Assembly (NCBI GenBank): GCA_024636785.1
Contig: JAGXGK010000025.1
Coordinates: 19,476-83,475, forward strand
DNA from: Gammaproteobacteria bacterium
GTDB taxonomy: Bacteria > Pseudomonadota > Gammaproteobacteria > SZUA-229
DNA length: 64,000 nt
Direction: 5' to 3'
Shown here: positions 4,583 to 63,622 of the stretch, in pieces
How the letters are laid out: each line of letters opens with the position of its first letter
Numbering within the stretch: position 1 is the first letter of the stretch
Program-made: the position numbers and the translations under genes
Notes under the pieces: model-generated
The model's input: only the letters and a program-made list of their open reading frames with translations
Told to the model about the DNA's origin: nothing
Databases searched by the model: none

Positions 4583-4625
4583 GCGTCTATCCAGAGGCTG
4601 ACATATTATTCAGTCAGTTTTCGCT

Positions 4626-6566: not shown

Positions 6567-6578
6567 TATTAGTTTCGA

Positions 6579-29459: not shown

Positions 29460-29460
29460 G

Positions 29461-31194: not shown

Positions 31195-31211
31195 CGTTAG
31201 TAACATCTCAT

Positions 31212-31251
31212 AAAAAACGCGGGAAAGCCTCTGGCTGTCCCGCGTTTTTTT
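31212..31251 (+). terminator. rho-independent terminator after HCO subunit I
   Basis: ACGCGGGA...TCCCGCGT stem followed by T7. Confidence 0.85.
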
Positions 31252-31490
31252 ATGCTTAAACCTAAATCCGTGGCTTAACCGAGGCGTCTGGCACAAGCCC
31301 CTGGCTCCACAGCGGATCAAAAAATGCCCGCTTAACCTAAGGGTGAAGCTAAGATTTTTTGAAACCCCTGTGAAACCAATATCTTGCACCATGCATCTAC
31401 GTTTAAATCACGGATTCAGCTTTAAAGAAATCTGTTTTCACACTTTTATGATACCCTTTTCAAATTATTCCACTTTGAGCTTAGATAAGT

Positions 31491-32342: not shown

Positions 32343-32413
32343 TATGTATCATTAGAGACTAATATAGCAAAGTGCTAAAATTCATCCGTCCATTCATTTG
32401 AGAGAAAAATTCT

Positions 32414-33976
32414 GTGTTGATCAATCCTATGAAGAGAGCCTATCTGGCTCTGGAATCCTGGTTCAATATTTCTTTTGGCACACATTGGAATCCAATGTAC
32501 CATCTGGGCACATTGACATTTTTTTTGTTCTGGATCATTCTGGTTACGGGTCTTTATCTGTTTGGGTTTTTTCATGGCAGTATCGATGGCGCTTATGACT
32601 CTGTCGAATATATCACTCACGATCAGTGGTATGCGGCAGGTGTGATGCGAAGCCTGCATCGTTACGCTTCCGATGCGGCGATTATTACCATTCTGCTGCA
32701 CCTGTTCAAAGAGCTGGCCTCGGGCCGTTATCACGGTGCCCGCTGGTTTTCCTGGGTATCAGGCTTGCCAACACTCTGGCTGGTAGTGACACTGGGTATA
32801 ACGGGCTACTGGCTGGTATGGGACGAACTGGGGCAATACGTGGCCATTGGTTCTGCTAGGCTGCTGGACTCCCTGCCCATATTTTCCGGTTCCATGGCCA
32901 GCAACTTCCTGCAAGGGCAGATGACAGATCGCTTCTTTATTCTTATAGAATTTTTGCATCTACTGGGTCAGCCGCTAATACTGTTTTTTCTGTTATGGCT
33001 GCACGTCAAACGACTTTCGAACGTCAATATAAATCCACCACGCGGTCTGGCTATAGGTTGTTTTTTAGCCCTGCTGGCATTGTCATTTATCAAGCCTGCG
33101 GTGAGTCATGCCCCGGCTAATTTGAGTTCAATGCCAACAGTGCTGGAGCTCGACTGGTTCTACCTGAACGCCTATCCATTGATGGATTACTGGTCAGAAG
33201 GTAAAACATGGTTGTTGGCAACCGCCATCACAGTTATATTGATGCTGCTGCCATTGCTACCGACAAAGAAAGCTGTCCCCGCTGCGGTGGTTGATCTCGC
33301 GCACTGCAATGGTTGCGAATTGTGTTTTGATGACTGCCCCTTTGAAGCAATCTCAGTGCAGGCGCGTACTGACGGCAGAAAATTTGAAAAGGAAGTTGTT
33401 GTCGATCCCTCCCTATGTGCATCCTGTGGAATTTGTATGGGCTCGTGTCCCTCCTCAAATCCATTTAGACAGTCCAATGAAGAGCTTAAAACGGGTATTG
33501 ATATGCCGTCGTTGCCGGTCGACAAAGTGCGTACCTTGACCGAACAGGCGGTAACATCAATGACCGGTTCCGCCAATGTTCTTCTGATCGGCTGTGAGCA
33601 CGGGTTTAATGTCAAGCAGCTTGATAATAATGAAACCGGAAGTGTGAAGTTAATTTGTAGCGGTATGATTCCACCCTCACTGATTGAATATGCATTAAAG
33701 AAAGGCGCAGACGGTGTGATGATTGTAGGTTGTCGCCACAATGACTGCTTCTATCGTTTTGGCAATCTCTGGATAGACAAGCGATTTTCCGGTGAACGCA
33801 AGCCGATACTCAGGAGCCGTGCAGATCGGCGTCGTATTAAAGTATTTGGCGGCGCTGAAACGGATAAAAAACTAATTGAAAAAGAACTGGAAGTTTTTCG
33901 CCATGAATTACTGGCGATAACCGAGCAAACTGATCTGCCTGAACAGGCTGAAATTAAAGAGTCTCCAGATGTTTAA
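32414..33976 (+). CDS. fusion protein: dihaem cytochrome b N-domain + 2x[4Fe-4S] ferredoxin + MvhD/FlpD-like domain
   Basis: Haem b His pairs are SLHRYASDAAIITILLH (H-x13-H) and FLHLLGQPLILFFLLWLH (H-x14-H). Fe-S motifs are CNGCELCFDDCP and CASCGICMGSCP. The MvhD-like block is KLICSGMIPPSLIEYALKKGADGVMIVGCRHNDCFY. Confidence 0.8.
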   Translation: MLINPMKRAYLALESWFNISFGTHWNPMYHLGTLTFFLFWIILVTGLYLFGFFHGSIDGAYDSVEYITHDQWYAAGVMRSLHRYASDAAIITILLHLFKELASGRYHGARWFSWVSGLPTLWLVVTLGITGYWLVWDELGQYVAIGSARLLDSLPIFSGSMASNFLQGQMTDRFFILIEFLHLLGQPLILFFLLWLHVKRLSNVNINPPRGLAIGCFLALLALSFIKPAVSHAPANLSSMPTVLELDWFYLNAYPLMDYWSEGKTWLLATAITVILMLLPLLPTKKAVPAAVVDLAHCNGCELCFDDCPFEAISVQARTDGRKFEKEVVVDPSLCASCGICMGSCPSSNPFRQSNEELKTGIDMPSLPVDKVRTLTEQAVTSMTGSANVLLIGCEHGFNVKQLDNNETGSVKLICSGMIPPSLIEYALKKGADGVMIVGCRHNDCFYRFGNLWIDKRFSGERKPILRSRADRRRIKVFGGAETDKKLIEKELEVFRHELLAITEQTDLPEQAEIKESPDV

Positions 33977-38809: not shown

Positions 38810-39982
38810 TTAAAGGCCGGTTTTGTGCGCGCGCACGGTGGCAAAAATGCCGCTGGGTTTGTTGGCCGGCAAGCGCACGCGTTCTTCAAAGCTTTCAGTG
38901 TCATAAACCACCAGCTGGTCGTCATCACGAATCGATGCCCATAGCTCTTCACCGCGAGGTTCAAACTCCATGTGCAGCACGCCCTTGCCGGGCTGTAATT
39001 TTTTGATGATCTTCAGCGACTGTGTATCAATCACTTGCAGGGTGTCGTTGTTCGGTATGGCAAAGTTGACCCAGACGTGGCGGCCATCAGGGCGGGCCAT
39101 GACAAAAATCGGCTGGCCGTGTACTTTAATGCGACCGGCTTCGGACCAGTTCCGGGTGTCGATCACCAGCACTTCGTGGCGACCCACGGCAGGTACAAAT
39201 GCATACTGTCCAGCCATCGCCCAGCCTTCCAGATGGGGCATTTTATAAACCGGCAGCTTCTGCTCGCCTTTACCGTAGTGGTCCAGTATACGTTTCACCC
39301 CGGCATCGAGATTCCATAGATCAAGGAGCGCCATGCCGTCTTCTCCAAACAGGCCGGCAATGTAATAACGGCCATCGGGTGAAATCAGCGCATCGTAGGG
39401 ATTGCGGCCGATGTCCTTGAATTTCTGAATCGAGGGTTTGTCTGGCCGGGACATATCGGCCACCCAGATTTCATCCGCATCCCACAGGCTGAAAACAAAC
39501 TTCTGCCCGGGGGCATCAACCAGGCCGATGACTTTTGAAGTCTGTTTCGTATCGCCATAGCTTGCCGGAATATCGGCCACCAGTGCCAGTGTTGCGGCAT
39601 CAAATATCTTCACGCCACCGGGCTCGTAATTGGAAACTGCCACCAGCGAGCCGTCCTGGGAGATGGCACCGCCGATGCTGTTACCCGCCTGCATAATGCG
39701 CTTGACGATTTTTCGCGTCAGCATATCCACCTTGGTGAGGCCGCCATCACGGCCAAAAATGTAGGCGTAACGCTCGTCGCGGGAATAGACCGCCGAGGCG
39801 TGCGACAGATCGCCCAGACCTTCAATGCGACCCAGGCTGGAGTTGCCGGTGGTTTCGATAATCTGAATACTGCCGCTGGCGCGTTCGATCACCAGGGCAA
39901 GATCACCGGTGCCGCGTAAATCCGCTGCATGCACCGGGATAAGCAAGACCAGTAAGAGTGAAAAGAGGGTGGTGCGGATCAT
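38810..39982 (-). CDS. nirF: NirF, cd1-like beta-propeller heme d1 biosynthesis protein
   Basis: Internal start MIRTTLFSLLLVLLIPVHA (signal). GTGDLALVIERASGS and a propeller body with no haem c motif. ATGA overlap with the nirC stop. Confidence 0.85.
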   Translation of the reverse strand: MIRTTLFSLLLVLLIPVHAADLRGTGDLALVIERASGSIQIIETTGNSSLGRIEGLGDLSHASAVYSRDERYAYIFGRDGGLTKVDMLTRKIVKRIMQAGNSIGGAISQDGSLVAVSNYEPGGVKIFDAATLALVADIPASYGDTKQTSKVIGLVDAPGQKFVFSLWDADEIWVADMSRPDKPSIQKFKDIGRNPYDALISPDGRYYIAGLFGEDGMALLDLWNLDAGVKRILDHYGKGEQKLPVYKMPHLEGWAMAGQYAFVPAVGRHEVLVIDTRNWSEAGRIKVHGQPIFVMARPDGRHVWVNFAIPNNDTLQVIDTQSLKIIKKLQPGKGVLHMEFEPRGEELWASIRDDDQLVVYDTESFEERVRLPANKPSGIFATVRAHKTGL

Positions 39983-40329
39983 TGGGAAATCCCCTGTTTG
40001 AGCTGCCTGGCGATCCACAGCGCATCGTCGGCGGAGAGCATGGTCTTCCAGCCGGGCATGGCGGTATTGGCATGGCCTTCGAGAATAGTGACCACCAGAT
40101 ACTCGGTCGGTTTGCCTTCGAGCTGTGCCGGCAGCAGGGCGGGGCCGAGGCCGCCTTTCAGGGTCATACCGTGGCAGGAGCCGCAATCCTGTTTCAGCAG
40201 GTGCATCAGCTCGCTCTGGCGCGATGCCGCGACCTCTGCCAGTGCCGGTTCCGAGATTAATCCTGAAACCAGCATCAGACTAACTAAGAACAGCGGTGTC
40301 TTCAACAAAATCAGACTCCTGTAGTGCAC
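39979..40329 (-). CDS. nirC: NirC monohaem cytochrome c55X
   Basis: Signal peptide and a single CGSCHG. 116 aa, between nirE and nirF. The listed start overlaps the nirE 3' end by 50 nt. Confidence 0.8.
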   Translation of the reverse strand: MHYRSLILLKTPLFLVSLMLVSGLISEPALAEVAASRQSELMHLLKQDCGSCHGMTLKGGLGPALLPAQLEGKPTEYLVVTILEGHANTAMPGWKTMLSADDALWIARQLKQGISQ

Positions 40330-41288: not shown

Positions 41289-43073
<1,785 letters not shown>

Positions 43074-43260: not shown

Positions 43261-43302
43261 TGTTATTTGTTATTTGTTATTTGTTATTTGTTATTTGCTG
43301 TT
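43261..43302. repeat. heptanucleotide tandem repeat (TGTTATT)x5 plus one degenerate unit
   Basis: Read directly from the sequence. The stop codon of the NosR/NirI-like gene lies inside the array. Confidence 0.95.
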
Positions 43303-44820
43303 TGTGGAGGCAACTGTTTCTTTTAATGTTTTGCGTTTTTCCTGTCGTTTGCGTTTATCCACCAATGGCGGACACTTTTTGTCATTCCAGTAAGTAACCT
43401 GACAATCCAGGCAGTAATGGCATTCCTGACTGATGATTTCGCCGGTTAAACGAATCGCGCCGACTTCACATTCTGTCCGGCAGGTCTGGCAGGGGCGGCC
43501 ACATTCCTTGCGTCGGCGTAACCAGTCAAAGATTTTAAATTTTGAAGGGAAGGTGAGGGCGGCACCCAGTGGACAGAGATAACGACAGTAAAATTTCCGG
43601 TTCCATATTGAAATAAGGATGAGGCCGGCGGCGTAAACCACGTAGCCCCATTCACGTTGAAAATGTAATGTAACGGCGGTTTTGAAAGGCTCGATTTCGG
43701 AGAACACTTCGGCCTGCGCCAGTGACTGCAACGACAGGCCGAAAAGGCCCAGCATGATTAGGTATTTAATTGCCCACAGGCGTTCGTGCACGACAACGGG
43801 GAATTCGTAAGAGCGGATGCCGAGCTTCTCTCCCAGTTTGTAGACGATTTCCTGAATGGCGCCGAAAGGACAAAGCCAGCCACAATAGACGCCACGACCC
43901 CACAGCAATATGGTCATGGCTACGAAGGTCCAGAGGATAAACATCATCGGGTCAATCATGAAGGTTTCCCAGCTGAAGCCGTGTATCACCGAACTGGTAA
44001 AAGTCAGTACATTGACGATGGAAAGCTGTGCGAGAGAATACCAGCCGATAAAAATGACGGTATAAACCAGATAGCCGTAACGCAAATATATGAGCAGTGA
44101 TGGATGATGAGCCAGCCAGTCCTGGAAAATAAGAATGAAAAGCAGCAAGGACAGCCCTATTAACAGCACGATGATCTGGAACGTTTTATCGCGCCAGGCA
44201 TAAACCCAGATAGGCTCCTCTGCTTCAAGATCGGCCGTGTGCTGTGTGGCTCCCTCTCCGATCAATCCACGTGATATGGCGATTTTCCGTAACGGCTTCA
44301 TGATGGTGGCATTCAGCACCATAGCGGTAATGGTGGCGCCGGATATGCCGTCCAGAGTGACGTAGCCTTCACGTCCACTGCCACCCAGCTGGACACGGTT
44401 ACCGGCATTCAGGCCCAAATACTGGTTTTTGAAATCCGACAGATCCTGTTCGGAAACGCCAGCCAGTAAAATCGGCTCCTGATGTTTGACAATTTCAACA
44501 CCGGTGATTTTCCCGCTTAAATCAAAACCGACCAGAGTATGAATCGGTTTGCCCGAATAGGCCGGTATGGGCATGACATGATCAGTGAAAAACACATAAC
44601 CCAGCAAGCGTTTACCCTGATAAACCGCTGCCGATTCGGGTTCCCCCTCAAATGGCCCCAAATTGTCAGCAGCGGGGAAAAATTGCAGAGCAAAAGGCGT
44701 AGCTTCCGCTACCGGGTTGTTTTTAGTGAAGGTGTTTGCGTCGGCCGTTCCGAATAGAAGGCATGATATTACGACAATACACACCAGGTAACTTCGGCAG
44801 GGTTGAGTGTTCATGAACAT
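43291..44820 (-). CDS. short NosR/NirI-family membrane FMN/Fe-S protein
   Basis: Periplasmic FMN-bind-like GISGATIT, 5-6 TM helices, CX3CP motifs (CGWLCP, CRYLCP) and C-terminal Cys clusters CGRPCQTCRTEC and CHYCLDCQ. Confidence 0.75.
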   Translation of the reverse strand: MFMNTQPCRSYLVCIVVISCLLFGTADANTFTKNNPVAEATPFALQFFPAADNLGPFEGEPESAAVYQGKRLLGYVFFTDHVMPIPAYSGKPIHTLVGFDLSGKITGVEIVKHQEPILLAGVSEQDLSDFKNQYLGLNAGNRVQLGGSGREGYVTLDGISGATITAMVLNATIMKPLRKIAISRGLIGEGATQHTADLEAEEPIWVYAWRDKTFQIIVLLIGLSLLLFILIFQDWLAHHPSLLIYLRYGYLVYTVIFIGWYSLAQLSIVNVLTFTSSVIHGFSWETFMIDPMMFILWTFVAMTILLWGRGVYCGWLCPFGAIQEIVYKLGEKLGIRSYEFPVVVHERLWAIKYLIMLGLFGLSLQSLAQAEVFSEIEPFKTAVTLHFQREWGYVVYAAGLILISIWNRKFYCRYLCPLGAALTFPSKFKIFDWLRRRKECGRPCQTCRTECEVGAIRLTGEIISQECHYCLDCQVTYWNDKKCPPLVDKRKRQEKRKTLKETVASTNSK

Positions 44821-47770: not shown

Positions 47771-49360
47771 TTAGTGGCTGGTGCCTTCCAGATATCGGGT
47801 TTTGTTGTAGACATTGTATTTGCCCGAGGGTTTGTTCATTGGCAGGCGCTTGATTTCTTCGAGGCTGTTGGCGTCGTAAACAATCACTGCGCCGTCGGTA
47901 TCCCAGATGCTGAGCAGGGCGTATTTGCCGTCGCGGGTGAACTCGACGTGAGCGGCGGTTTTGCCGGGGGCGGGGCGCAGGGTTTTGACGATTTCCAGGG
48001 TGCTTTTGTCGATTACATGCACGGCATCTTTATTCGGGCCGAAGAAAACATCAACCCAGGCGTAGGGACTGTTTTTATGGCTGCGCATGAAGAAGCCGGG
48101 TCCGAGGGTTTCGATGTTTTTGATGGTTTTCCAGCTTTCCATATCGATGACGCTGACGTTATTAGCTTTCAGGTTGGGCGTGGCCAGCACGGTGCGGCCC
48201 TGATATTCCCAGGTAATGCCGGAGCCGAGGTGGGGCATGCCGGGCAGCGCCAGATCAGGCACGATGACGCGACCGACATCCAGATTGACCACCTGACCCT
48301 TGCCTTCGCGCGAGGCACCGATCAGGTTCACGTAGTCCTGGTCGAAGAAAAAATCATCCAGATAATCGCTGACTTCGATTTTTCTTACCGGGAAGGGATC
48401 CGGCGTGATTTTCTCGCCGGAATCTTCGCGGTAATCGTGTACCCAGAAACCAAAGCCGGCAGGCGGATTATCATCGTAGGAGATTTCCCACAGTTCGGGG
48501 ATATCCTTTAAGGCGGCGATGAAACTGTTGCGTGGTGGTGCGGTATAGACGGCGCTGACGCGGGAAGTTTTGCCGGTATGGTCTTTGGCTTCGAACAATT
48601 TGATCGGGCTTAGGTCTTTGGCATCGAGCAGTACCAGAGTGTGCGGCAGGTAATTGGCGACCATGACATAGCGACCATCAGCAGAGACCGCCTGATTACG
48701 GGTGTTGATGCCGGCACGGATTTCGGCGACCAGTTTCAGGTTGTAAATATCGTATTTGCTGATCCAGCCATCGCGTGAGGCAAAGTAGACGAAGCGGCCG
48801 TCCGGTGAATATTTGGGGCCGCCGTGCAGGGCAAAGCGCGACTTGAAGCGGTGGATGGGTTCCAGTTTATCGCCATCGAGCAGGGTGACGTGGTGGTCGC
48901 CCAGCTCAACCACCAGAAACAGGTTCAGCAGATCGGCGACTTCAAACACGGGCTTGTCGGAGAGTTCGCTTGCTTTGTTATGAATGATCTGGCTGGCTCT
49001 GATTTCAGCCATGCCCCACACCGGCATCTGTTCCAGCGGTGTATAGATATAGTCAACCAGTGACCGGGTTTCTGTCTCGGAAAGCTTTTCCCTGAAGGCC
49101 GGCATCTGGGTGGCGACGCGGCCATTGGTAATCACTGTAGCCGCGTCTTTCATTTTCAGTCGTTTAAGATTTTCCGGCAGCAGTGCAGGCCCCATGCCGC
49201 CAAGGCGATGTTCATTGTGACATTCAGCACAATGATCCCGATAGAGTTGCTGTGTCTTGTTGACAGTCTTAGCCTCGGCCGATTCAGCCTGTGCCGGAGC
49301 CGAAAGTGTTGTTGCCAGCAGGCAGAAAGTGCAGAGCGTAAAAAAGGTTTTGTGGTTCAT
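47771..49360 (-). CDS. nirN: NirN-like cytochrome cd1-family protein
   Basis: 529 aa. Signal peptide, CAECHN haem c domain, cd1-type propeller and C-terminal KPSGKYNVYNKTRY. No other nirN candidate in the window. Confidence 0.65.
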   Translation of the reverse strand: MNHKTFFTLCTFCLLATTLSAPAQAESAEAKTVNKTQQLYRDHCAECHNEHRLGGMGPALLPENLKRLKMKDAATVITNGRVATQMPAFREKLSETETRSLVDYIYTPLEQMPVWGMAEIRASQIIHNKASELSDKPVFEVADLLNLFLVVELGDHHVTLLDGDKLEPIHRFKSRFALHGGPKYSPDGRFVYFASRDGWISKYDIYNLKLVAEIRAGINTRNQAVSADGRYVMVANYLPHTLVLLDAKDLSPIKLFEAKDHTGKTSRVSAVYTAPPRNSFIAALKDIPELWEISYDDNPPAGFGFWVHDYREDSGEKITPDPFPVRKIEVSDYLDDFFFDQDYVNLIGASREGKGQVVNLDVGRVIVPDLALPGMPHLGSGITWEYQGRTVLATPNLKANNVSVIDMESWKTIKNIETLGPGFFMRSHKNSPYAWVDVFFGPNKDAVHVIDKSTLEIVKTLRPAPGKTAAHVEFTRDGKYALLSIWDTDGAVIVYDANSLEEIKRLPMNKPSGKYNVYNKTRYLEGTSH

Positions 49361-49825: not shown

Positions 49826-51595
49826 TTATTTCCCTACGGCATTAATTTCCGCATCGTCATTATCAAAGCCCAGTATCAGCCCCAGTGAGACATGATGGAA
49901 ACGGCTGTTGCTGTAATCATCGTGTATGGCAAAACCGATGCTGTACATCTGGTCGGTGCTCATGCTGATGTCACCGGCTTTGTCCGAGCTGAGCTTACGG
50001 GTCATTTCAACCGTCCATACGCCATTTTCAAGGCTGCCGGTGAAATCCACTCCCTGACCGCCAGTCATGACGCGCTCGGCCAGAATGTAACCATCTTCAG
50101 ATTCACCTGTACCCGCTTTGTAGCGCAGCAGATCCATAAATGAACCATTTTCCAGCGCGGCCTGAATCTCGCCAGCCTCTTTCAATTTGTCCCAGCCGCC
50201 GCGTTTGGCATCATTTTTACCCTCGATCTCGATCTCGGTACGGCTCTCTTTAAGGTACTTGGTGAAGCCATTGCTGGAGTCGAGTCGACTGTCGGCCAGC
50301 GCTGACTGATCGGGCTGGTCAGGCATATCGTTGACATCGTGATGACAGCTTTGCCAGCAACCGGCACGCTCCGTGTATTCTACTTTGGGGTCGTCCTCAT
50401 TAATCGCCGCGAGCATAATTGCCAGCTTGATCGGATTTTTCGGATCCATCTTGCCGCCTTCTGCAAAAGGAATAGCTGCATGTTCACCGTCCGGCCACTG
50501 GAAGCGCATGTACAGATTTTCGCCATCGTGTTTGGCCTGCACGTTAACGTCAATGCTGCCGCGCTTGCCGGGAATAGGGGTAGGTTCGAGTTTCTCGCCG
50601 GAAACAATCAGTTTCCCGATACTCATTCCTTCACCTTCATGACAATCGAAGCAACGGTCACCGTATAAAAATCCACGTTTGCCGCCGTGGTCGCTGCCCT
50701 TGAGTACCCACTCCATAGAGGCCTGACCCGGATAAAAGAGGGTGACTTCTGCGGCTTCAATGCCTGACCAGTCGACACCCGTGACCGATTTTGTGCCGGT
50801 AGCGGCGGGTGCGGTATCAGCCTGACTTGAAGCTGGTGCTGCCAATTCGGTTTTGGCGGGCGTAGCATCCTCAGTTGTTTCAGTCTCAATAGCCGCCGCT
50901 GTTCCAGCCGGGTCATCTGTTGTGGTGACCAGCTTTTTATCGTTATCGATAAAAGCCTGCCACTGTGGCGCTATGGGGCGTTTGTTTTTTTCAACTGGTT
51001 TTGAAAGCTCTTCCAGCTCGCTTTCGCTCAACTGATCATGAACCTTGCTGTGCGCAATACCTTTGTGGCAATCGATGCAGGTATTGCCCCTTTCCATGGC
51101 GCCGGCATGCTGCCTACGCGAACGTTTCTTTTGATCTTCCGGCTTCATCGAATCGAAATTGTGGCAGTTTCGGCATTCGCGTGAATCTGTCTCCTTCATC
51201 GAACGCCAGACATTTTTGGCCAGGAATAAACGCTTGGCATTGAATTTTTCCGGGGTGTCGATGGTACCAAGCACCTTATGCAGGACCTCGTTACTGGCCT
51301 TTATTTTGCGCACGACTTTGTGCACCCAGGGGTCGGGTACATGGCAGTCTGAGCAGGTGGCGCGCACGCCACTACGGTTGGTGTAATGAATGGTTTTTTT
51401 GTATTCCTGATAAACATTCTCTTCCATCTCATGACAGGAGATGCAGAATTCCAGGGTATTGGTGACTTCCATGGCGGTATTGAAACCACCCCAGAAGATG
51501 ACACCGACAATCATGAAAAACAGGGCCGCGCCCAGTGTGGTTCCCATCAGGACCTTGCGCGACATTAAACCGAATTTCCTAGATGTATTAGTCAT
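49826..51595 (-). CDS. nirT: NirT (NapC/NirT tetrahaem) fused to a C-terminal NirB/EB_dh-like haem domain
   Basis: The N-terminal ~190 aa are highly similar to NapC at 18307 and carry four CXXCH motifs. An Ala/Thr/Pro-rich linker follows. The C-terminal ~330 aa carry CFDCH and CWQSCH (CX3CH). Confidence 0.75.
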   Translation of the reverse strand: MTNTSRKFGLMSRKVLMGTTLGAALFFMIVGVIFWGGFNTAMEVTNTLEFCISCHEMEENVYQEYKKTIHYTNRSGVRATCSDCHVPDPWVHKVVRKIKASNEVLHKVLGTIDTPEKFNAKRLFLAKNVWRSMKETDSRECRNCHNFDSMKPEDQKKRSRRQHAGAMERGNTCIDCHKGIAHSKVHDQLSESELEELSKPVEKNKRPIAPQWQAFIDNDKKLVTTTDDPAGTAAAIETETTEDATPAKTELAAPASSQADTAPAATGTKSVTGVDWSGIEAAEVTLFYPGQASMEWVLKGSDHGGKRGFLYGDRCFDCHEGEGMSIGKLIVSGEKLEPTPIPGKRGSIDVNVQAKHDGENLYMRFQWPDGEHAAIPFAEGGKMDPKNPIKLAIMLAAINEDDPKVEYTERAGCWQSCHHDVNDMPDQPDQSALADSRLDSSNGFTKYLKESRTEIEIEGKNDAKRGGWDKLKEAGEIQAALENGSFMDLLRYKAGTGESEDGYILAERVMTGGQGVDFTGSLENGVWTVEMTRKLSSDKAGDISMSTDQMYSIGFAIHDDYSNSRFHHVSLGLILGFDNDDAEINAVGK

Positions 51596-51743: not shown

Positions 51744-53408
51744 TTAAGTTACATGGTTAACGCGGTTATACACGTTGAACTTACCTGTTGGAGCGTAAAG
51801 TCCTTTAATACGTGCTTTTTCTTCCAGTGTTTTAGCATCAAAGATGATGATTTCACCGTTAGGTTTCAGACTGTCTGAACGATTCCATACAGATGCCCAT
51901 ACTTCGGTGCCATCTTTGTTGAACTCGAAGTGAACGGCTGCGTAGCCCTTTTTATCAGTTAGCTGAATAGTCTTAACAATCTTACGAGTTTTCTTGTCAA
52001 GAACTTTAACTGACTGCTGGATAGCAGGTTCAGGGTGTTTAGTCTGGTCTATCCAGACGTAATCACTCTTGGGATGGGTGCGCAGGAACACGCCTGCACC
52101 GTCGGTGTCAACGGTGTAGCAGAGTTTCCAGGCCTGATCTTTATGACCTTTTGGATCATTGCCCCAGACTGAGACTTTGCCCACGCCAAGATGCGTTGTA
52201 CCTGCTACAGGACCACACTTGTCATCGTTCCAGTTTGCACCAGGACCTGGGTGAGGTTTGCTGGCAACATCGATCATTGCTTCTAGCTTGCGATCCACGG
52301 TATCGATGACTACCATCTTGTCAGAAGCGTTAGCCGCGATCTGGAAGTAACGGCCTGTTGGGTCGAAGAAGCCATCATGCAGGTACTTGGCAGAATCGAT
52401 TTCGGTGATCTGCAGGTTATCAAGATCACTGTAATCAACCTGCCACATCTGACCTAATTCCTTCGCAGCCACTAACCAGGTAGGAGCCAACGGTGTGTCA
52501 TAGATCGCAGCAACACGTGACTCGTTAACATACTCACCATCAACGTTAACACCACGAGTAGAAACGACTTTCAGAGGTTCCATGGTTTTAGCATCAGCGA
52601 TAACGAAGTGGGGAGGCCAGTAACCGCCACCGATAACGTACTTGCCATCACCTGATACGGCAACGTCACGTGCGTCATAAGCAACCTGTACCTGAGCGAC
52701 TTTCATCTTGTCAGGGTTAGCCCATAGATCGATTTTAGTCATCATGCCATCACGACCCATGATGTACCAGAAACGGCCAGCGTCTTTAGCATGCAGGGTT
52801 TGATGATGTTCGACTGTTTTCAGTACGTGTACTGCATATCCGGTAGAAATGTGGGCAAGCACTTCTTTTTTATCACCGTCGATGATAGCGATCGAACCTT
52901 TATCACGTTCGATAGCGATGAAAAAATTCTCCCAGTTACGGCCATGCATTGGCTTGCTAGGATAATCTTTTGGTTCTATATAAACCTTCCAGCGTTCTTT
53001 CATTAATGCCAGAGACATTTCGGGTGGTACTGGGGGCTCCATCTGGATATACCGGGCCAGCAGGTTTATTTCCTCTTTGCTGAAGATATCATCAAAGTTG
53101 TTCATGCCGCCTTCGGTACCGAGGGTAATAATTCGCTCCAGACGTTTTGTGCCCAGTTTGAGAGTGCCTTTGGTGTTTTTGGCTTTATTGGGTTTTGGTT
53201 CCAGGTTTTTACCCGTGGCACCGACGCGTAAAACACCATGACAACCGGCACAACGCTGGAAGTACATGCTCTTTGCGGTTTCAAATTCAGCCTCGTTAAG
53301 AGGTACGAATTCATCTTTTTTGGCGAAGGCTACACCCGAAGATGCGGCCATGCCCACGCATGCGGCAACGAGTGCTGCACCGTATTTTAACTTATGTTTC
53401 GTGCTCAT
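51744..53408 (-). CDS. nirS: cytochrome cd1 nitrite reductase NirS (copy 2)
   Basis: 554 aa. Signal peptide, CAGCHG, d1 propeller and C-terminal TGKFNVYNRVNHVT. Its codon usage is distinct from neighbouring genes. Confidence 0.93.
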   Translation of the reverse strand: MSTKHKLKYGAALVAACVGMAASSGVAFAKKDEFVPLNEAEFETAKSMYFQRCAGCHGVLRVGATGKNLEPKPNKAKNTKGTLKLGTKRLERIITLGTEGGMNNFDDIFSKEEINLLARYIQMEPPVPPEMSLALMKERWKVYIEPKDYPSKPMHGRNWENFFIAIERDKGSIAIIDGDKKEVLAHISTGYAVHVLKTVEHHQTLHAKDAGRFWYIMGRDGMMTKIDLWANPDKMKVAQVQVAYDARDVAVSGDGKYVIGGGYWPPHFVIADAKTMEPLKVVSTRGVNVDGEYVNESRVAAIYDTPLAPTWLVAAKELGQMWQVDYSDLDNLQITEIDSAKYLHDGFFDPTGRYFQIAANASDKMVVIDTVDRKLEAMIDVASKPHPGPGANWNDDKCGPVAGTTHLGVGKVSVWGNDPKGHKDQAWKLCYTVDTDGAGVFLRTHPKSDYVWIDQTKHPEPAIQQSVKVLDKKTRKIVKTIQLTDKKGYAAVHFEFNKDGTEVWASVWNRSDSLKPNGEIIIFDAKTLEEKARIKGLYAPTGKFNVYNRVNHVT

Positions 53409-57344: not shown

Positions 57345-58286
57345 ATGACAATTACAAAAATAATACCACTTTTCTATTTCCTACTCATAAGTGGATGCTC
57401 CACTGGCACGATGGAAGTTATTAACAAGCCTGATTCGCAGCCACAAGTTAGCAAATCAATTATCTCAGAAGACGTTAAAGGCCTAAAAAGAAAGGTCGCA
57501 ATTGCTCGCTTTAGCAATGAGACTAAACATGGTAATTCATTTCTTTTAGACGAAAATAACGACCGTATTGGTAAGCAGGCAAGCGATATTCTTGCCGCCC
57601 GTTTGACTGAATCGGGTAAGTTTTTGATGTTTGAGCGACAGGACCTAAATAAAATTAAAGCCGAGCAGGATTTGGCAAACATCACGACAAAAACTGTTGG
57701 CGCAGATTTTCTTATCATCGGCTCTGTTTCAGAGTTTGGACGTACCACCGTAAGTGAGGTCGGCATCTTTAGTCGTAACAAGAAACAAAAAGCAAATGCT
57801 ACTGTAAATGTACGTCTGGTAGATGTAAAAAGTGGACAAATTATTTTTTCACAAGAAGGTAGCGGTGAAGCTCTATCAGAGGCTAATCGGGTATTCGGCG
57901 TTGGTGAATCGGCAGGCTATGACTCTAAATTAGATGATGAAGCATTATCAGCAGCTATTTCTAAATTAGTCAGTAACCTGATCGAGAATCTTCTTGATAG
58001 GCCCTGGTTGGCATATATTCTTGATGTGCAACAGGATCAGATCATTATATCAGGCGGAAAGTCACAGGGCCTTACTCAAGGAGATGAATTAAGAGTCATG
58101 AAAAGCGGGCGGAAAGTGAAGAATCCACAAACAGGTCTGGAAATTGAATTGCCAAGAGAAGAGATTGCAAAGATAAAAGTGATGTCTTTTGCAGGTGAGG
58201 GCAATAATGAAGTTGCTATTTGCAGGCTGTCTTCAGGAAAGATTGCTGGTTTAAAAACCAGCCAACTAATTGTTCAGGAGTTTTGA
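57345..58286 (+). CDS. CsgG/HfaB-family outer-membrane lipoprotein with extra C-terminal beta domain
   Basis: Lipobox LLISGC. KVAIARFSNETK and ADFLIIGSVSEFG blocks are typical of CsgG-like proteins. A ~90-aa C-terminal extension is present. Confidence 0.7.
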   Translation: MTITKIIPLFYFLLISGCSTGTMEVINKPDSQPQVSKSIISEDVKGLKRKVAIARFSNETKHGNSFLLDENNDRIGKQASDILAARLTESGKFLMFERQDLNKIKAEQDLANITTKTVGADFLIIGSVSEFGRTTVSEVGIFSRNKKQKANATVNVRLVDVKSGQIIFSQEGSGEALSEANRVFGVGESAGYDSKLDDEALSAAISKLVSNLIENLLDRPWLAYILDVQQDQIIISGGKSQGLTQGDELRVMKSGRKVKNPQTGLEIELPREEIAKIKVMSFAGEGNNEVAICRLSSGKIAGLKTSQLIVQEF

Positions 58287-58287
58287 G

Positions 58288-58614
58288 ATGATGTATATGA
58301 GAAACATATTGTTGATTATCGGTGCTCTATTTTTGCTGGTAGGGTGTGGCACATATAGTCAATCAGTGCAGGTAGATGATAACGCCTACCTACTATTGAT
58401 TGGTGATCCTACTGGCCATATAGTAACAATTGATACAGGTCAGCCAATTAAACTTAGCAATGAAACAACGTCGTTCAACCTAAATGGAAAAACAGCTACA
58501 AAAATACAGGTTCCAACTGGAACACATAGCGTAAAAATCATAAAAGACGGAGTTCTTGTCATTAACAGAAAATTTTACGTATCAACTGGGACATCATTCG
58601 AGGTGCAATTATGA
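58288..58614 (+). CDS. small lipoprotein (beta-rich, unknown family)
   Basis: Lipobox FLLVGC. CAGGAG lies upstream of ATG 58288. 4-nt overlap with the next gene. Confidence 0.6.
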   Translation: MMYMRNILLIIGALFLLVGCGTYSQSVQVDDNAYLLLIGDPTGHIVTIDTGQPIKLSNETTSFNLNGKTATKIQVPTGTHSVKIIKDGVLVINRKFYVSTGTSFEVQL

Positions 58615-58964
58615 AAAAGTTACCATTCTATGTTCTGATGTTATTTATTTTTAGCGGCTGCGCGACTGTTAGTCAATCTAATCTTTATTGGGGAGATTAT
58701 TCACATACTCTCTATAACGTAAAAAAGAATCCTGGAGAAGCCTCTAATGCAGAACATGAGAAAGAGCTTCATCATATTGTCGAGAAATCAAAATCTATGA
58801 ATCTGAGAGTCCCACCCGGAATTTATGCTGAGCTTGGTATGTACGCAAAGGAACGGGGAGAGAACAGCGCTGCCAATAATTACTTTGCACTTGAACTGGC
58901 AACATATCCCGAAGGAGAGGCTTTAATAAAGCGTGCTCTTAAAAACAAATCAAGCGATTCATAA
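58611..58964 (+). CDS. DUF4810-type lipoprotein
   Basis: Lipobox FIFSGC. LYWGDYSHTLY and ELATYPE blocks. Conserved partner of DUF799 (family name recalled from memory). Confidence 0.6.
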   Translation: MKKLPFYVLMLFIFSGCATVSQSNLYWGDYSHTLYNVKKNPGEASNAEHEKELHHIVEKSKSMNLRVPPGIYAELGMYAKERGENSAANNYFALELATYPEGEALIKRALKNKSSDS

Positions 58965-58976
58965 GAGGCATAACCA

Positions 58977-59648
58977 ATGAAAGCTAAGTTACTAATTCTA
59001 AGTACGATTGTTCTGTTTAATACTGGCTGCATGATGCAAACGACAACCAAATCTGAAGCATTTACAGAGATGTATAATGAGAAACCTGTTTCGGTTTTAG
59101 TCATCCCTGCGATCAATCAAAGCACCGCCGCTGATGCACCGATACTGTATTCATCAACAATCAATGAGCCACTGTCCAATGCAGGATATTATGTCTTGCC
59201 AATGGAATTAACTGATCGTTTTTTACGTAACGAAGGCCTATCCGAAGGAGAGGTTCTGAAAGATGTACCAGCGCAGAAATTTGCGCAATTCTTTGGTGCG
59301 GATGCAGTTCTTTACGTAACTATTGAGAAATGGGACACTAATTACTATGTAATCGGGGGCAACGTTACTGTTGGTGCACATTTTCAAATGAAATCATGCA
59401 AAACAGGTGAGACTCTATGGGCATACAGAAACGAAATGGTTTTAGACACCAGCGGCAACAATAACAATGGCGGGGGCTTGCTCGCTGCTTTGATCAGTAC
59501 TGCTATCGCCACGGCTACACAGGATTATGTCCCAGTTGCACGTAACGTCAACGTTCTATCATTGCAAGCTATACCTTTTGGAAAATATCATAAATTACAT
59601 GGCAAAGATCAGGCTGTAGCCATAGATGCGAGCAAAGTAACAAAATAG
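58977..59648 (+). CDS. DUF799 (GNA1162-like) lipoprotein
   Basis: Lipobox LFNTGC. VLVIPAINQSTAADAP...PLSNAGYYVLPMELTDRFLRNEG is typical of DUF799. Confidence 0.7.
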   Translation: MKAKLLILSTIVLFNTGCMMQTTTKSEAFTEMYNEKPVSVLVIPAINQSTAADAPILYSSTINEPLSNAGYYVLPMELTDRFLRNEGLSEGEVLKDVPAQKFAQFFGADAVLYVTIEKWDTNYYVIGGNVTVGAHFQMKSCKTGETLWAYRNEMVLDTSGNNNNGGGLLAALISTAIATATQDYVPVARNVNVLSLQAIPFGKYHKLHGKDQAVAIDASKVTK

Positions 59649-60129: not shown

Positions 60130-60156
60130 AAAAAAAGCCCCGGCATAGACCGGGGC
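60130..60156 (-). terminator. rho-independent terminator after the porin gene
   Basis: GCCCCGG...CCGGGGC stem followed by T7 on the minus strand. Confidence 0.8.
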
Positions 60157-60215: not shown

Positions 60216-61532
60216 CTAGAAAATAATCAGAAGCTGAGCGGAGAGGCGATCATCCATGCCATCAAGAATCTGGTTGGCTGCGTGTGCTGATGCCAGATTA
60301 GGCGCTTCTGCATTTCTGGCTTCATAATTGACGATCAGTCGACTCTTCTTGTTAAAGAAGTACTGCGCACCCACTGTCAGGGTGTCGAATTTACGTTCTT
60401 TTGCCGCCACATCGGTCATACGATTGTAAACGTCGTAACGCAGATCCAGTTCCAGCTCGTTAGTCAGTGCATAACCATAATGCAGATAATAGCCGTCAGC
60501 TTCGCCAGTGGTCTCGACATTGAACGATGCTGTGGCTGTACCAAGGTTGTTTAAAGTACCCGGAACAGCGCCACCATCGCTACCATTGAAGATCATGCCA
60601 TCAGCGGTAATATATTCAAAGCCTGCGCGTTGTTTGCCTTTTTTGAAAGTCGTACCCAGGCCTGAGCGGGTACGATCATATTCACCGGCACCGGCAGCTG
60701 TCAGCGTCCGTTTACCGTCCTGATTCCAGGCAAACAGCTTCCAGCCTTCGCGACGTGCTCCTGCACCGGCATAAACCTGTTCAGAAGACCAGTACAGGTA
60801 GGTCTCCATGCTGTCATTGTTGTCGGCACGATTGATGCCGTTGCCGTTACCCAGCATCACCGCATAACTGTGTTCCCAGTCATTAACCTTGAAGGTGTCA
60901 AACATCTGGATACCAATATCACGGAAGGCGCCAACCGAACCATTGGGCCTATTAGCATCACCTGCGGCTGAGCCATCCCCGTCGAAAAAGCGCTCTAATA
61001 ACAGGCCATTGGTTGCTCCCGTGAAGTTGATGTAGTCAAACACATGGATTGCCTGCAAGCCTTCTTCCGAGCCCGGAGTTTTGAACTGGCCCACCCGAAA
61101 ACGAGCGCCATCGATATGATTGAGTGTGACGCTGGCATCGGTAAGTTTTGCGCTGCCGTTGTCGCCGGCGGTAATGCCATTGTTACCAAATTCAGCCAGT
61201 AAAAAGTAGTTGACATTGCTGTCCAGCGGAAGGCCGGTACCGCGTACACCCAGACGGGCACGAAGGACGTTGAAACCCTTGTTGGACTTCAAATTAGGTC
61301 TCATCTGGTTGAAGATGGCGTCCTGTCCTTTCCAGGGGCCCGCCTGAAGAGGCGTATTACTGGTAGAGCTGTATTCAGGCTGTATGAAGCCCCATACTTT
61401 TGCTCTCGGTGCGGCTGCGTCGCGTTCTGTGCCCTGTAGCATTAGCCAGTTCGCAGCCTGTGCGGTTGAGGCTGCCATTGTGCCTATTATCGCGGCAACA
61501 ATTAATATTTTTTCCGATGGTTTTTTTATCAC
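60216..61532 (-). CDS. outer-membrane porin (beta-barrel), specificity unknown
   Basis: Signal peptide ending TAQAA. Alternating beta-strand pattern, Gly/Asn/Asp-rich loops and C-terminal LLIIF. Confidence 0.7.
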   Translation of the reverse strand: MIKKPSEKILIVAAIIGTMAASTAQAANWLMLQGTERDAAAPRAKVWGFIQPEYSSTSNTPLQAGPWKGQDAIFNQMRPNLKSNKGFNVLRARLGVRGTGLPLDSNVNYFLLAEFGNNGITAGDNGSAKLTDASVTLNHIDGARFRVGQFKTPGSEEGLQAIHVFDYINFTGATNGLLLERFFDGDGSAAGDANRPNGSVGAFRDIGIQMFDTFKVNDWEHSYAVMLGNGNGINRADNNDSMETYLYWSSEQVYAGAGARREGWKLFAWNQDGKRTLTAAGAGEYDRTRSGLGTTFKKGKQRAGFEYITADGMIFNGSDGGAVPGTLNNLGTATASFNVETTGEADGYYLHYGYALTNELELDLRYDVYNRMTDVAAKERKFDTLTVGAQYFFNKKSRLIVNYEARNAEAPNLASAHAANQILDGMDDRLSAQLLIIF

Positions 61533-61608: not shown

Positions 61609-62040
61609 TTATGGTTTTATCAGTGTGTAGCCTTCTTCGACTAAATCAATGATGCGCACAACACCGGCTGGCACCGGTTTGGCAGCAGCGTGTAATGTTG
61701 GTGTGTGCCCTAATATTTTGGTCATAGACGCAATGGTGTTTTCGCAGGCAGAGAACGTGACATTGTTGGTTATCAGGCCATCAATGCGTTGACTGTTTGC
61801 ATTCTTTTCAAATAAGAGTCGTAAGCCGGGGCCGAAAGCCACAATTTCAACGGCTACTTTATTCTGGCCATAATGTTTTATCAGGTTGTTGGCAACATTG
61901 AGTACCAGCGTTTGTTTGAAAGGATCGTTGTCGCTAATTTGCAATACGATCTTCTTCTCAGCAAAATCGTTTGCGGCATGCACAGGAAATATGAATGCCA
62001 TCGCTGCCAGCATTATCAGTGATTTATAAAATTTTCTCAT
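61609..62040 (-). CDS. secreted DsrE/DsrF-like (COG1416-type) protein
   Basis: Signal peptide. KKIVLQISDNDP..., VTFSACENTI (conserved Cys) and EEGYTLIKP are typical of the DsrE-like fold family. Confidence 0.65.
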   Translation of the reverse strand: MRKFYKSLIMLAAMAFIFPVHAANDFAEKKIVLQISDNDPFKQTLVLNVANNLIKHYGQNKVAVEIVAFGPGLRLLFEKNANSQRIDGLITNNVTFSACENTIASMTKILGHTPTLHAAAKPVPAGVVRIIDLVEEGYTLIKP

Positions 62041-62339
62041 TGTGACTCCACTCGTAATTATTTAAATACGCTTAATGAATGCCGTAACGCTGGCATCTAA
62101 TATAAAGACGGAGCTAATATGAATTTATTCACTGGAATTTGTTTTACTGGCTTAATTATTTAGTAGATTCACGTTATCATTGAAAATGCTGGCGAAAGTA
62201 TCCATGCTAAGCTTGATTAAAGAGTGCTGTTTTTGAACTTACGGCAACAATGTGTTAATTAAAATATAACAATATATTAATTAACTTATGTGAATAAATG
62301 GTCGATTGCATCGTCTCTACTTAAGGCGGGAGTTTTATT

Positions 62340-62888
62340 TTGAAAAAAGTTACAAATATGCTGGCTGCGTTCTCGCTGAAATCGGAATTCGCGGCGCGAC
62401 GTAATAAACTGTATCGCATCGCTTATTCATGGTGTCATAGCTCCGCCCTGGCAGACGATTTGGCTCAGGAAACGATTTATAAAGCGATGAAAAATGCCGC
62501 CGGCCTGCGTGACCCTGGCACTATTGATACCTGGTTGTATCGAATATTGTTCAATTGCTGGCAGGATTATTTAAGGGTTAAAAACCGAAATGTTGAATTT
62601 GTTGAAATGCACGACGAGGTACAGGCTGAGCATGCTGAAAGTTATCAGCAATCTCAGATCGTCAATCGTGTGCGCTCAGCAATCGAATTATTACCTATGC
62701 CGCTACGGGAAGTGGTGACACTGGCAGATTTTGCGGGATTAAGTTATGCGGAAATTGCTGAGATCATCGATGTACCAATAGGCACAGTCATGAGTCGGTT
62801 ATTCCGGGCACGAAAAAATCTAAAGCAGCAGTTGCTGGACTTCGGTGTAGATGAGCTTTCCGGCTGCAAGTTGCGGAGTATTAAGTAA
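62340..62888 (+). CDS. ECF-type RNA polymerase sigma factor
   Basis: Region 2 is DDLAQETIYKAMKN...WLYRILFNC. Region 4 is LSYAEIAEIIDVPIGTVMSRLFRARKNL. TTG start with an upstream GGGAG. Confidence 0.85.
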   Translation: MKKVTNMLAAFSLKSEFAARRNKLYRIAYSWCHSSALADDLAQETIYKAMKNAAGLRDPGTIDTWLYRILFNCWQDYLRVKNRNVEFVEMHDEVQAEHAESYQQSQIVNRVRSAIELLPMPLREVVTLADFAGLSYAEIAEIIDVPIGTVMSRLFRARKNLKQQLLDFGVDELSGCKLRSIK

Positions 62889-63622
62889 TGAGTGTTAATG
62901 AAATTACGGAAGAAAAATTAAATTTATTTGTCGACAAGCAACTCGATGCTGATGAGATGAATGAAATTCATCAGTTGTTGCTGGATGACAAGGTATTGCG
63001 TGAGCGTGTCTGTCAGCTAAAAGCAGTACGTGAGCTGGTCGGTTACGCCTACAGTGAAGTGCCACCTTCACGCTATGAGAAGGTCGGGGTAAAAAGTTCG
63101 CGCTCAATTTATGCAAAAGCGATGGCGGCCTCGGTAACGCTGGCTATAGGGGTGTTATTAGGCTGGGGAACTTACCAGTATAGCCCCGGCGCAAAAGGAA
63201 TTATCTCTGCTGAAAATACTTTTCAATATGTAGCTAATCAGGCAAGCGTGGATCATACGCAACGCAAAATTGTGCTGCATATCGATTCGGGCGATGTGCA
63301 GGTGGTAAATGCCGCCTTAACTGAAGCTGATCAGTTACTGGCGACTTATCGCAAAGCCAATACGCCAATGAAACTGGATATTGTCACTAATAAATCAGGT
63401 ATTAATGTTTTAAGGCCGGGTGTATCGCCTTATATAGAGCGTTTACAAAAAATGGCCGCTGACGGTAATGTATCGTTTTTTGCCTGCAAGCAATCTATTG
63501 CTAAAGCCCATAACATTGAAGGTGTTGAAATTGTTTTGATGCCCGGTGTGGTGGTTGACAGAACGGCCGCAGACATAATTCCACAGCGCCTCAAAAAGGG
63601 CTGGGTGTATATAAAAGCCTAA
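62888..63622 (+). CDS. anti-sigma factor with periplasmic DsrE-like domain
   Basis: Start overlaps the sigma stop (TAATG). N-terminal anti-sigma helix region, one TM helix (AASVTLAIGVLLGWG) and a C-terminal domain homologous to the 143-aa protein at 61609. Confidence 0.7.
   Translation: MSVNEITEEKLNLFVDKQLDADEMNEIHQLLLDDKVLRERVCQLKAVRELVGYAYSEVPPSRYEKVGVKSSRSIYAKAMAASVTLAIGVLLGWGTYQYSPGAKGIISAENTFQYVANQASVDHTQRKIVLHIDSGDVQVVNAALTEADQLLATYRKANTPMKLDIVTNKSGINVLRPGVSPYIERLQKMAADGNVSFFACKQSIAKAHNIEGVEIVLMPGVVVDRTAADIIPQRLKKGWVYIKA

Follow-up and report, generated by a model that had tools for sequence, protein, structure and literature searches.

An extracytoplasmic function (ECF) sigma factor whose anti-sigma factor carries an exported DsrE-like domain is encoded in a 64,000-nucleotide stretch of a Gammaproteobacteria bacterium genome (GenBank assembly GCA_024636785.1, contig JAGXGK010000025.1, positions 19,476 to 83,475; here, the window). 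The anti-sigma factor is very probably a single-pass membrane protein, whose cytoplasmic, RseA/MucA-like part holds the cotranslated sigma factor and whose periplasmic part is a DsrE-like domain with an invariant cysteine, Cys200. A divergent operon encodes a secreted DsrE-like paralog of 143 amino acids (aa) (here, DsrE143) and a porin-like protein. Taken as a whole, the four genes are probably best explained as an envelope signaling module, and a periplasmic reactive sulfur species is its plausible signal.

An earlier note, made from the sequence alone, had described three open reading frames (ORFs) here, those of the sigma factor, the anti-sigma factor, and DsrE143, and their coordinates all proved correct. 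The unit extends to four genes and two promoters, with the porin-like gene belonging with the other three (Table 1). The pairing of an ECF sigma factor with an anti-sigma factor, also proposed there, is upheld by the overlap of the sigma stop codon and the anti-sigma ATG as TAATG (the coupling that the note had read), by the ECF domains, and by anti-sigma matches at the family level.

The sigma factor and its membrane anti-sigma factor

The sigma factor has sigma-2 and sigma-4 regions only (Pfam Sigma70_r2, E = 2e-13; Sigma70_r4_2, E = 8e-17) and scores 89.5 bits against the ECF superfamily model TIGR02937, the cutoff of which is 42.9. It reached no equivalog cutoff in NCBIfam; its score for the RpoE equivalog is 92.6 bits versus a cutoff of 236, i.e., it is not an RpoE equivalog. 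SigH, AlgU, SigE, and RpoE are its closest solved relatives.

The AlphaFold2 (AF2) model of the 244-aa anti-sigma factor, based on an alignment of 142 sequences, has a predicted local distance difference test score (pLDDT) of 87.7. Three N-terminal helices (residues 8-15, 21-33, and 35-54), all confident, are followed by the transmembrane helix, a low-confidence or disordered stretch, and a compact alpha/beta domain, which are delimited in Table 1. The 142 representatives used here and below are mostly 25-38% identical to the query, with one at 51%. Among them, 35 match zf-HC2 in Pfam (best E value, 6.6e-6) and 7 match RseA_N, and a profile of the family over residues 3-52 finds MucA (6IN7) at E = 0.012 and the N-domain of RseA (8Z6G) at E = 0.02. 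The N terminus appears RseA/MucA/zf-HC2-like, and the H-x3-C-x2-C zinc motif is absent from residues 1-60. Because these residues hold a single Cys, Cys42 (72% conserved), and not the zinc motif, the protein is not a member of the zinc-binding anti-sigma (ZAS) group. RseA and other nonzinc anti-sigma domains likewise lack this motif. Asp16 is invariant among the relatives, and G88, G92, and W93 are conserved in the transmembrane helix. Because the anti-sigma domain is predicted to be cytoplasmic and there is one transmembrane helix, the C-terminal domain should be periplasmic.

Two other assignments were considered for the pair. Cell-surface signaling of the FecI/FecR/TonB type was rejected, as there are no FecR or TonB-receptor domains and the outer membrane partner is Porin_O_P-like. 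Identity with the ECF26/sulfite system (RpoE1/RpoE4) was not established.

Table 1. Features of the module and its surroundings (positions in the window)
Feature	Position	Strand	Description
DsrE143 ORF	61609-62040	-	143 aa, secreted, DsrE-like (MTH1491/COG1416-type)
ECF (group 4) sigma ORF	62340-62888	+	182 aa, TTG start
Anti-sigma ORF	62888-63622	+	244 aa, ATG start
Porin-like gene	60216-61532	-	438 aa, second gene of the DsrE143 operon
Anti-sigma domain	62888-63052	+	residues 1-55 of the 244-aa protein
Transmembrane helix	63101-63175	+	residues 72-96 of the 244-aa protein
Low-confidence linker	63176-63262	+	residues 97-125 of the 244-aa protein
Periplasmic DsrE-like candidate sensor domain	63263-63622	+	residues 126-244 of the 244-aa protein
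Cys200 codon	63485-63487	+	in the sensor domain of the anti-sigma factor
Cys99 codon	61744-61746	-	in DsrE143
ECF-type promoter motif GAATAAATTCATATTAGCTCCGTCT	62106-62130	-	ends 65 nt upstream of the DsrE143 ATG
ECF-type promoter motif GAATAAATGGTCGATTGCATCGTCT	62292-62316	+	ends 23 nt upstream of the sigma TTG
Intrinsic-terminator-like hairpin	60137-60156	-	GCCCCGG-TCTA-TGCCGGGGC, then T7; about 60 nt past the porin stop

The DsrE-like domain and its secreted paralog

Profile searches and structure prediction both point to an MTH1491-like fold, in agreement with the DsrE/COG1416 fold named in the earlier note. With phmmer, the two window proteins match MTH1491 (1L1S) along the whole domain at E values of 6e-5 and 7e-5, and the anti-sigma family profile matches the same structure at 5e-21 and ST0148 at 1.6e-11. 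The Pfam model DsrE is matched at E ≤ 0.01 by 43 of the 142 anti-sigma family members (best, 7.5e-9). In Foldseek comparisons, the target-normalized template-modeling (TM) scores to 1L1S are 0.88 for the sensor domain and 0.92 for DsrE143, and those to 2PD2 (ST0148) are 0.86 and 0.90, respectively; further matches include YchN, TusD, DsrEFH (2HY5), 2D1P, and SSO DsrE-like entries. The periplasmic domain had been given as about 140 aa (residues ~105-244). Its DsrE-like nature holds, whereas its extent has to be revised, the folded part covering residues ~126-244 (119 aa).

Each of the two exported domains contains exactly one Cys. Cys200 is invariant in the 142 anti-sigma representatives, as are W239 and Y241, and H131, N168, G171, R234, and G238 are at least 90% conserved. 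In the AF2 model, Cys200 is placed at a strand-to-helix junction, after strand 195-199 and before helix 201-211. DsrE143 has a Sec signal peptide ending in ...VHA/AND and found no match in NCBIfam. Its single Cys, Cys99, belongs to an invariant F(S/A)AC motif and is itself invariant in 28 homologs, so that the Cys pointed out in the earlier note is conserved on both sides of the locus. The AF2 model of DsrE143 (pLDDT, 88.1) places Cys99 as the final residue of strand 94-99, directly followed by helix 100-110.

The paralogy of the two proteins, first read from three pairs of similar peptides, is firm: the peptides are present in the translations and are aligned by BLASTP (E = 2e-5) and by hhalign, and the hhalign comparison of the two families gives 99.2% probability with an E value of 7.3e-20 over 116 columns, Cys200 standing opposite Cys99. 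The sensor subtype (H131, N168, and GWxY) is unlike the DsrE143 subtype at conserved positions. By analogy with the chemistry of the superfamily, sulfur binding or transfer is a candidate function of the Cys200 domain: DsrE3A and TusA form Cys-thiosulfonates with tetrathionate, and transfer of Cys persulfide or thiosulfonate groups is documented (PMC4175335).

Promoter motif and controlled genes

The intergenic regions have in common the motif GAATA(A/T)-N14/15-CGTCT. Its strict form occurs exactly twice in the 64-kb window (0.2 occurrences expected by chance), and the copies are correctly oriented, one before each operon. In a first motif set of about 23 loci out of the first 27 fetched, the plus-strand copy was found upstream of sigma in 23 of 23 loci, two GTCA variants included, and the minus-strand copy ahead of the leading gene of the divergent operon in 22 of 23; the intergenic DNA of these loci is otherwise unalignable. 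The motif also precedes sigma in most loci of a metagenome set described below, including single-strand layouts and one high-GC contig, and many of these loci carry the minus-strand copy as well. The predicted promoter before sigma contains -35 GAA/AAC-type and -10 CGT-type elements, as ECF autoregulatory promoters do, and no sigma-70-like site was found in the intergenic region 62041-62339. Judging from the sequence pattern, the sigma factor probably autoregulates its own operon and directly drives that of DsrE143 and the porin-like protein.

DsrE143 and the porin-like gene form an operon: the latter starts 76 nt past the former, with no terminator between them, and the hairpin listed in Table 1 is likely the end of the operon. 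The porin-like protein has a signal peptide (...STAQA/ANW) and is predicted to be of the outer membrane type. Its match to Porin_O_P (PF07396, anion/phosphate-selective porin) is weak (E = 3e-9; 37.1 bits versus a cutoff of 20.9), the best stretch covering residues 81-160 only, and no match was found in NCBIfam or, at E ≤ 1, among PDB sequences.

Immediately 5' to the -35 element of the sigma promoter, positions 62254-62285 form an AT-rich palindrome (GTTAATTAAAATAT-AACA-ATATATTAATTAAC). The closest relatives (loci L003 and L004) share it, more distant loci do not, and a second regulator could bind there. A repeat search returned one short palindrome and nothing else, and no Rfam family was found within the window.

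The surroundings of the module bear on a different signal, nitrite or nitric oxide (NO), which would be sensed, e.g., by S-nitrosation of Cys200, the module then being part of the denitrification island of the window. At 8-45 kb from the module lie napFDAGHBC, several cd1 nirS-type genes, and genes for heme d1 synthesis, a NosR/NirI-like protein, a COX1-like oxidase, and molybdenum cofactor synthesis. The strict motif, however, is confined to the two module promoters, with no nir, nap, or nor gene within the window carrying it, and in other lineages the module adjoins ribosomal-protein, porin, DUF3683, citrate-synthase, and other unrelated genes. We thus regard nitrogen oxides as a very improbable signal, and the nitrosative stress at which the earlier note had hinted loses its footing with the nonconserved denitrification context. 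Control of the surrounding denitrification genes by the sigma factor was rejected because there is no further motif in the window and the context is not conserved.

Family distribution and gene neighborhoods

In an exhaustive search of representatives at 50% identity, the fusion of an anti-sigma domain to a DsrE-like domain was found in 739 clusters at E ≤ 1e-3 and in 487 clusters at E ≤ 1e-10, and nearly all of the best 150 cluster matches are full length (~240 aa). Thus, the fusion is an established and diverse family. Named members come from "Gammaproteobacteria bacterium" metagenome-assembled genomes (MAGs), hydrothermal vent metagenomes, and Beggiatoa alba; they are annotated as "DsrE family protein," "intracellular sulfur oxidation DsrE/DsrF family protein," or hypothetical.

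The gene order of the window, with porin and DsrE143 genes divergent from sigma and anti-sigma genes, is retained in 18 MAG loci, and the same four genes occur in six loci of other subfamilies (L022, L023, and L024-L027). The identities of the L022 and L023 proteins to those of the window are ~29% for the anti-sigma factor, 46% for sigma, 57-59% for DsrE143, and 45-72% for the porin. The controlled genes are far more conserved across these two loci than the regulators, which fits either strong constraint on the DsrE143-porin pair or lateral transfer of the pair. Many relatives have a longer divergent operon, which opens with a secreted, thioredoxin-like protein of the AhpC-TSA/Redoxin family carrying WGT(D/E)CPPC and continues with a second DsrE paralog (here, par2; 46.4 bits against Pfam DsrE in L008), a DsrE143-type protein, a porin, and a DUF302 protein.

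A second layout was found among 80 metagenome loci gathered with an alignment of the Beggiatoa-type subfamily. Here, a single strand carries, in this order, the sigma gene, the gene for the DsrE-bearing anti-sigma factor, one or two genes for secreted DsrE proteins of the par2 type, and genes for another ECF sigma factor and for a DUF3379 anti-sigma factor, an arrangement that suggests a two-sigma cascade in some lineages. An example is L085 (positions 3598-7442; DUF3379, E = 3e-48), which has no porin; the layout recurs in L066, L068, L069, L073, L076, L078, L083, L087, L088, and L096.

A free secreted DsrE-like gene stands beside the pair in 53 of the 55 informative loci, i.e., those in which 700 nt or more can be seen on each side (divergent in 43 and downstream in 10); because the sampled loci are related to each other, this count describes conservation and not independent events. 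The sole exceptions are L065 and L091, which have no free DsrE-like gene within reach; L091 retains the promoter motif upstream of sigma. The part in sensing that the earlier note had offered to the free paralog is supported indirectly, by this constant neighborhood and by the promoter motif that the paralog shares with sigma.

This association, in which free paralog and sensor nearly always occur together, also bears on a docking role. A catalytically passive sensor might report how much free DsrE paralog is available for a mixed oligomer, in the way that RseB protects RseA, and so monitor carrier supply or export. The placement of the paralog in the regulon, which would give feedback, and the RseA/MucA-like N terminus agree with such a role, as does the trimeric state of the nearest solved homologs (PMC5495134), to which a cage designed from ST0148 (8UJA) may be added. 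Against it, a surface used purely for docking would not readily account for a Cys that is invariant across relatives of such low identity, and the sensor and DsrE143 subtypes differ at conserved positions. Pure docking is, in our judgment, rather improbable.

In a distant locus (L029, positions 4727-6384, on plasmid p2 of Azospirillum brasilense), a gene for a DsrE143-type secreted protein (35% identical) directly follows one annotated as "site-2 protease family protein." This adjacency may be a coincidence, yet it is notable given the intramembrane proteolysis proposed below.

Proposed signal and mechanism

For the signal, we consider it an even call that the module senses a periplasmic reactive sulfur species, e.g., polysulfide or persulfide, or else a donor of thiosulfonate groups like tetrathionate. 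This proposal draws, largely by analogy, on the superfamily chemistry, a regulon made up of more single-Cys DsrE-like carriers and an anion-porin-like channel, the CPPC reductase of relatives, a sox-linked cassette, and the hosts, which include Beggiatoa and vent or sediment bacteria. The periplasmic CPPC reductase is reminiscent of the thioredoxins that work with Sox carrier proteins. On a plasmid of Methylosinus trichosporium OB3b, soxZ and soxB are directly followed by genes for a DsrE143-type protein, a par2-type DsrE protein, and DUF302. A plasmid of Acidithiobacillus caldus (pLAtc2) has a porin and a DsrE143 homolog on one 14-kb record, ~1.6 kb and two genes apart, and Rhizobium tumorigenes encodes, between DoxX and a TlpA reductase, a free DsrE-like protein that belongs to the sensor subtype. 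A periplasmic DsrE-like gene has also been described in the sox operon of Methylovirgula thiovorans HY1 (PMC9371685).

In the mechanism that we propose, the sulfur species would modify Cys200, either directly or in a sulfur exchange with the free DsrE carrier, and the modification would change the state or the oligomerization of the sensor domain. Homo- or hetero-oligomerization is plausible because MTH1491, the closest solved homolog, is a homotrimer (PMC5495134). The linker of about 30 residues would then be open to regulated proteolysis, and a cut within the glycine-containing transmembrane helix (G88 and G92) would free the sigma factor. The freed sigma factor would read the GAATA(A/T)-N14/15-CGTCT promoters of its own operon and of the divergent carrier/porin operon, and the induced porin and carrier would allow more uptake and handling of the compound. 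Finally, the free paralog, together with the thioredoxin-like protein, would reset the sensor, which would amount to negative feedback.

Several observations weigh against this account. Taken alone, the 244-aa protein of the window has no significant match to an anti-sigma profile (best, NF010501 in NCBIfam, E = 0.082), and the anti-sigma assignment of its N terminus rests on the family members, the gene order, and the topology. Likewise, the Pfam DsrE match of the anti-sigma factor and DsrE143 stays below threshold (E = 0.023; 15.3 bits versus a gathering cutoff of 22.7). No sox, dsr, sqr, or fcc gene lies within the window, and no sulfur-oxidation gene appears in the gene tables and Pfam matches examined, which cover about ten of the ~110 loci. 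The link to sulfur comes from the fold, the distant cassettes, and the host ecology, and proteolytic release is proposed by analogy. Literature searches for COG1416 and MTH1491 turned up no functional work and no demonstrated activity for proteins of this type.

Some of the same observations would also suit a general thiol-oxidation or electrophile stress of the envelope (peroxide, hypochlorite, copper, or disulfide stress), with Cys200 as a redox switch and a regulon for thiol repair and protection rather than sulfur handling. A single invariant Cys is present in the sensor and in each free paralog, the controlled operon of many relatives opens with the AhpC-TSA/Redoxin-family CPPC gene, copper-resistance genes lie near L022, and none of the loci with examined genes has a dedicated gene for sulfur oxidation next to the module. 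However, the copper genes are found in this single locus, and the genes under predicted control encode, in every case, DsrE-like carriers, usually together with an anion-type porin, and not classic oxidative-stress enzymes. Moreover, the homologous DsrE-DsrE-DUF302 cassette lies inside a sox cluster, and Beggiatoa and Gammaproteobacteria from vents or sediments make up the named or sampled hosts. A general thiol stress is, on these grounds, an unlikely signal.

If a reactive sulfur species is indeed sensed, the carriers themselves might deliver it. Sulfane sulfur would then be passed from Cys to Cys between the free periplasmic DsrE carriers and the anti-sigma domain, and the loading of the carrier pool, not the binding of a ligand, would decide the destruction of the anti-sigma factor, making the module a general periplasmic sulfur sensor of sulfur-oxidizing Gammaproteobacteria. 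We put such a relay forward as a speculative and unlikely scheme; if true, it would be a covalent relay, phosphorelay-like but persulfide-based, that feeds an ECF sigma factor.

Other genes in the window

Four Cytochrom_D1 paralogs (cd1 NirS/NirN/NirF-type) are encoded on the minus strand (positions 38810-40186, 41289-43031, 47771-49360, and 51744-53408), and three of these begin with a cytochrome c domain. Their island also contains genes for heme d1 synthesis (NirDL-like, radical SAM, and TP_methylase), a hemerythrin, a cupredoxin, and a NosR/NirI-like FMN_bind plus Fer4_5 protein (43291-44820). Between cd1 nitrite reductase paralogs sits a 589-aa fusion (49826-51595, minus strand) of a NapC/NirT tetraheme quinol-dehydrogenase domain (E = 3e-72) and an EB_dh ethylbenzene-dehydrogenase-type heme-binding domain (E = 2e-31), which looks unusual.

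In a plus-strand cluster at 28914-33976, genes for a COX2-like protein (weak match), a COX1-like protein (577 aa), and a SCO1/Redoxin-like protein precede one for a 520-aa protein in which cytochrome b, two [4Fe-4S] motifs, and an FlpD (MvhD-like) domain are fused; the cluster may represent an atypical NO reductase or oxidase module equipped with its own protein for electron input. A lipoprotein cluster (57345-59648, plus strand) that is convergent with the porin gene encodes a CsgG-like protein (313 aa), a 114-aa protein, a DUF4810 protein, and a GNA1162-like protein. This cluster is present in exact-match contigs (L001 and, partly, L002) and was not detected in more distant MAG loci.

Comparison with known systems

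The earlier note knew of no characterized example of such a sensor, and the searchable literature yielded no description of a DsrE-like anti-sigma domain. Neither DsrE nor PF02635 nor Porin_O_P occurs in the text and nine supplement files of the ECF reclassification paper (Casas-Pastor 2021), and the papers on DsrE4 and DsrE5 do not cover exported COG1416-type proteins.

RseA and MucA are class I anti-sigma factors that are freed by regulated intramembrane proteolysis and have RseB and MucB, respectively, as periplasmic partners. The module resembles the RseA/RpoE and MucA/AlgU systems in its cotranscribed sigma and anti-sigma genes, in the single transmembrane helix with the N terminus inside, in the ECF promoter before sigma, in the probable N-terminal helical anti-sigma domain, which appears related at the family level, and in having a periplasmic domain together with a separate periplasmic protein that could bind it. 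It differs in that a folded, Cys-containing DsrE-like domain takes the place of the C-terminal region of RseA in the periplasm, its partner candidate is a paralog of the sensor and not RseB or MucB, and its sigma factor is not an RpoE equivalog and has a GAATA-N-CGTCT promoter.

Among DsrE-like proteins, MTH1491 and ST0148 (1L1S and 2PD2) share with the module domains the fold (TM scores of 0.86-0.92), homology along the full domain, and the ...(F/C)AC... motif that holds the Cys; a C-terminal GW-Y-I motif is common to them and the sensor domain. They are, however, free, cytoplasmic, and archaeal, whereas the module domains are exported, one as part of an anti-sigma factor and the other as a secreted protein. 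DsrEFH, TusBCD, and DsrE3A have the superfamily fold, a single functionally conserved Cys, and paralogs cooperating as oligomers; unlike the module, they are cytoplasmic sulfur transferases with no signaling role, and their sequence similarity to it was undetectable in our comparisons. The periplasmic DsrE-like genes in the sox clusters of Methylovirgula and Methylosinus OB3b encode secreted proteins, with the same two subtypes and DUF302, but no ECF pair is linked to them in those genomes, where their function is predicted.

ECF sigma factors that respond to inorganic sulfur are known from Sinorhizobium meliloti, in which RpoE1 and RpoE4 (ECF26) are sulfite responsive (PMC3511301). These are autoregulated sigma factors for inorganic sulfur metabolism that control an adjacent small operon, as proposed here; their target, in contrast, is the SorT sulfite dehydrogenase, their signal is apparently made inside the cell, and, in the passages covered here, no DsrE-like sensor domain is described for their anti-sigma factors (PMC3511301). 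The known sulfur regulators SoxR (ArsR-type) and sHdrR reside in the cytoplasm and rely on import (PMC11582611, PMC10451225), and the extracytoplasmic detection of reduced sulfur by sulfur oxidizers is an acknowledged gap.

The module offers a testable candidate for a periplasmic sensor of this kind: its promoter is defined, its regulon comprises two to five genes, and its two single-Cys proteins lend themselves to mutation. It supplies a context for the orphan MTH1491/COG1416 branch of the DsrE superfamily and corrects database names, in that members listed under the DsrE family or as DsrE/DsrF proteins of intracellular sulfur oxidation are anti-sigma factors of the membrane, a domain of which is exported. 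The compact and apparently orthogonal pair of sigma factor and promoter might also find use in synthetic ECF circuits. In comparison with the known systems, the module would work as ECF signaling of the RseA/RpoE type, and what is new is a DsrE-like sensor with its own paralog as the likely partner.

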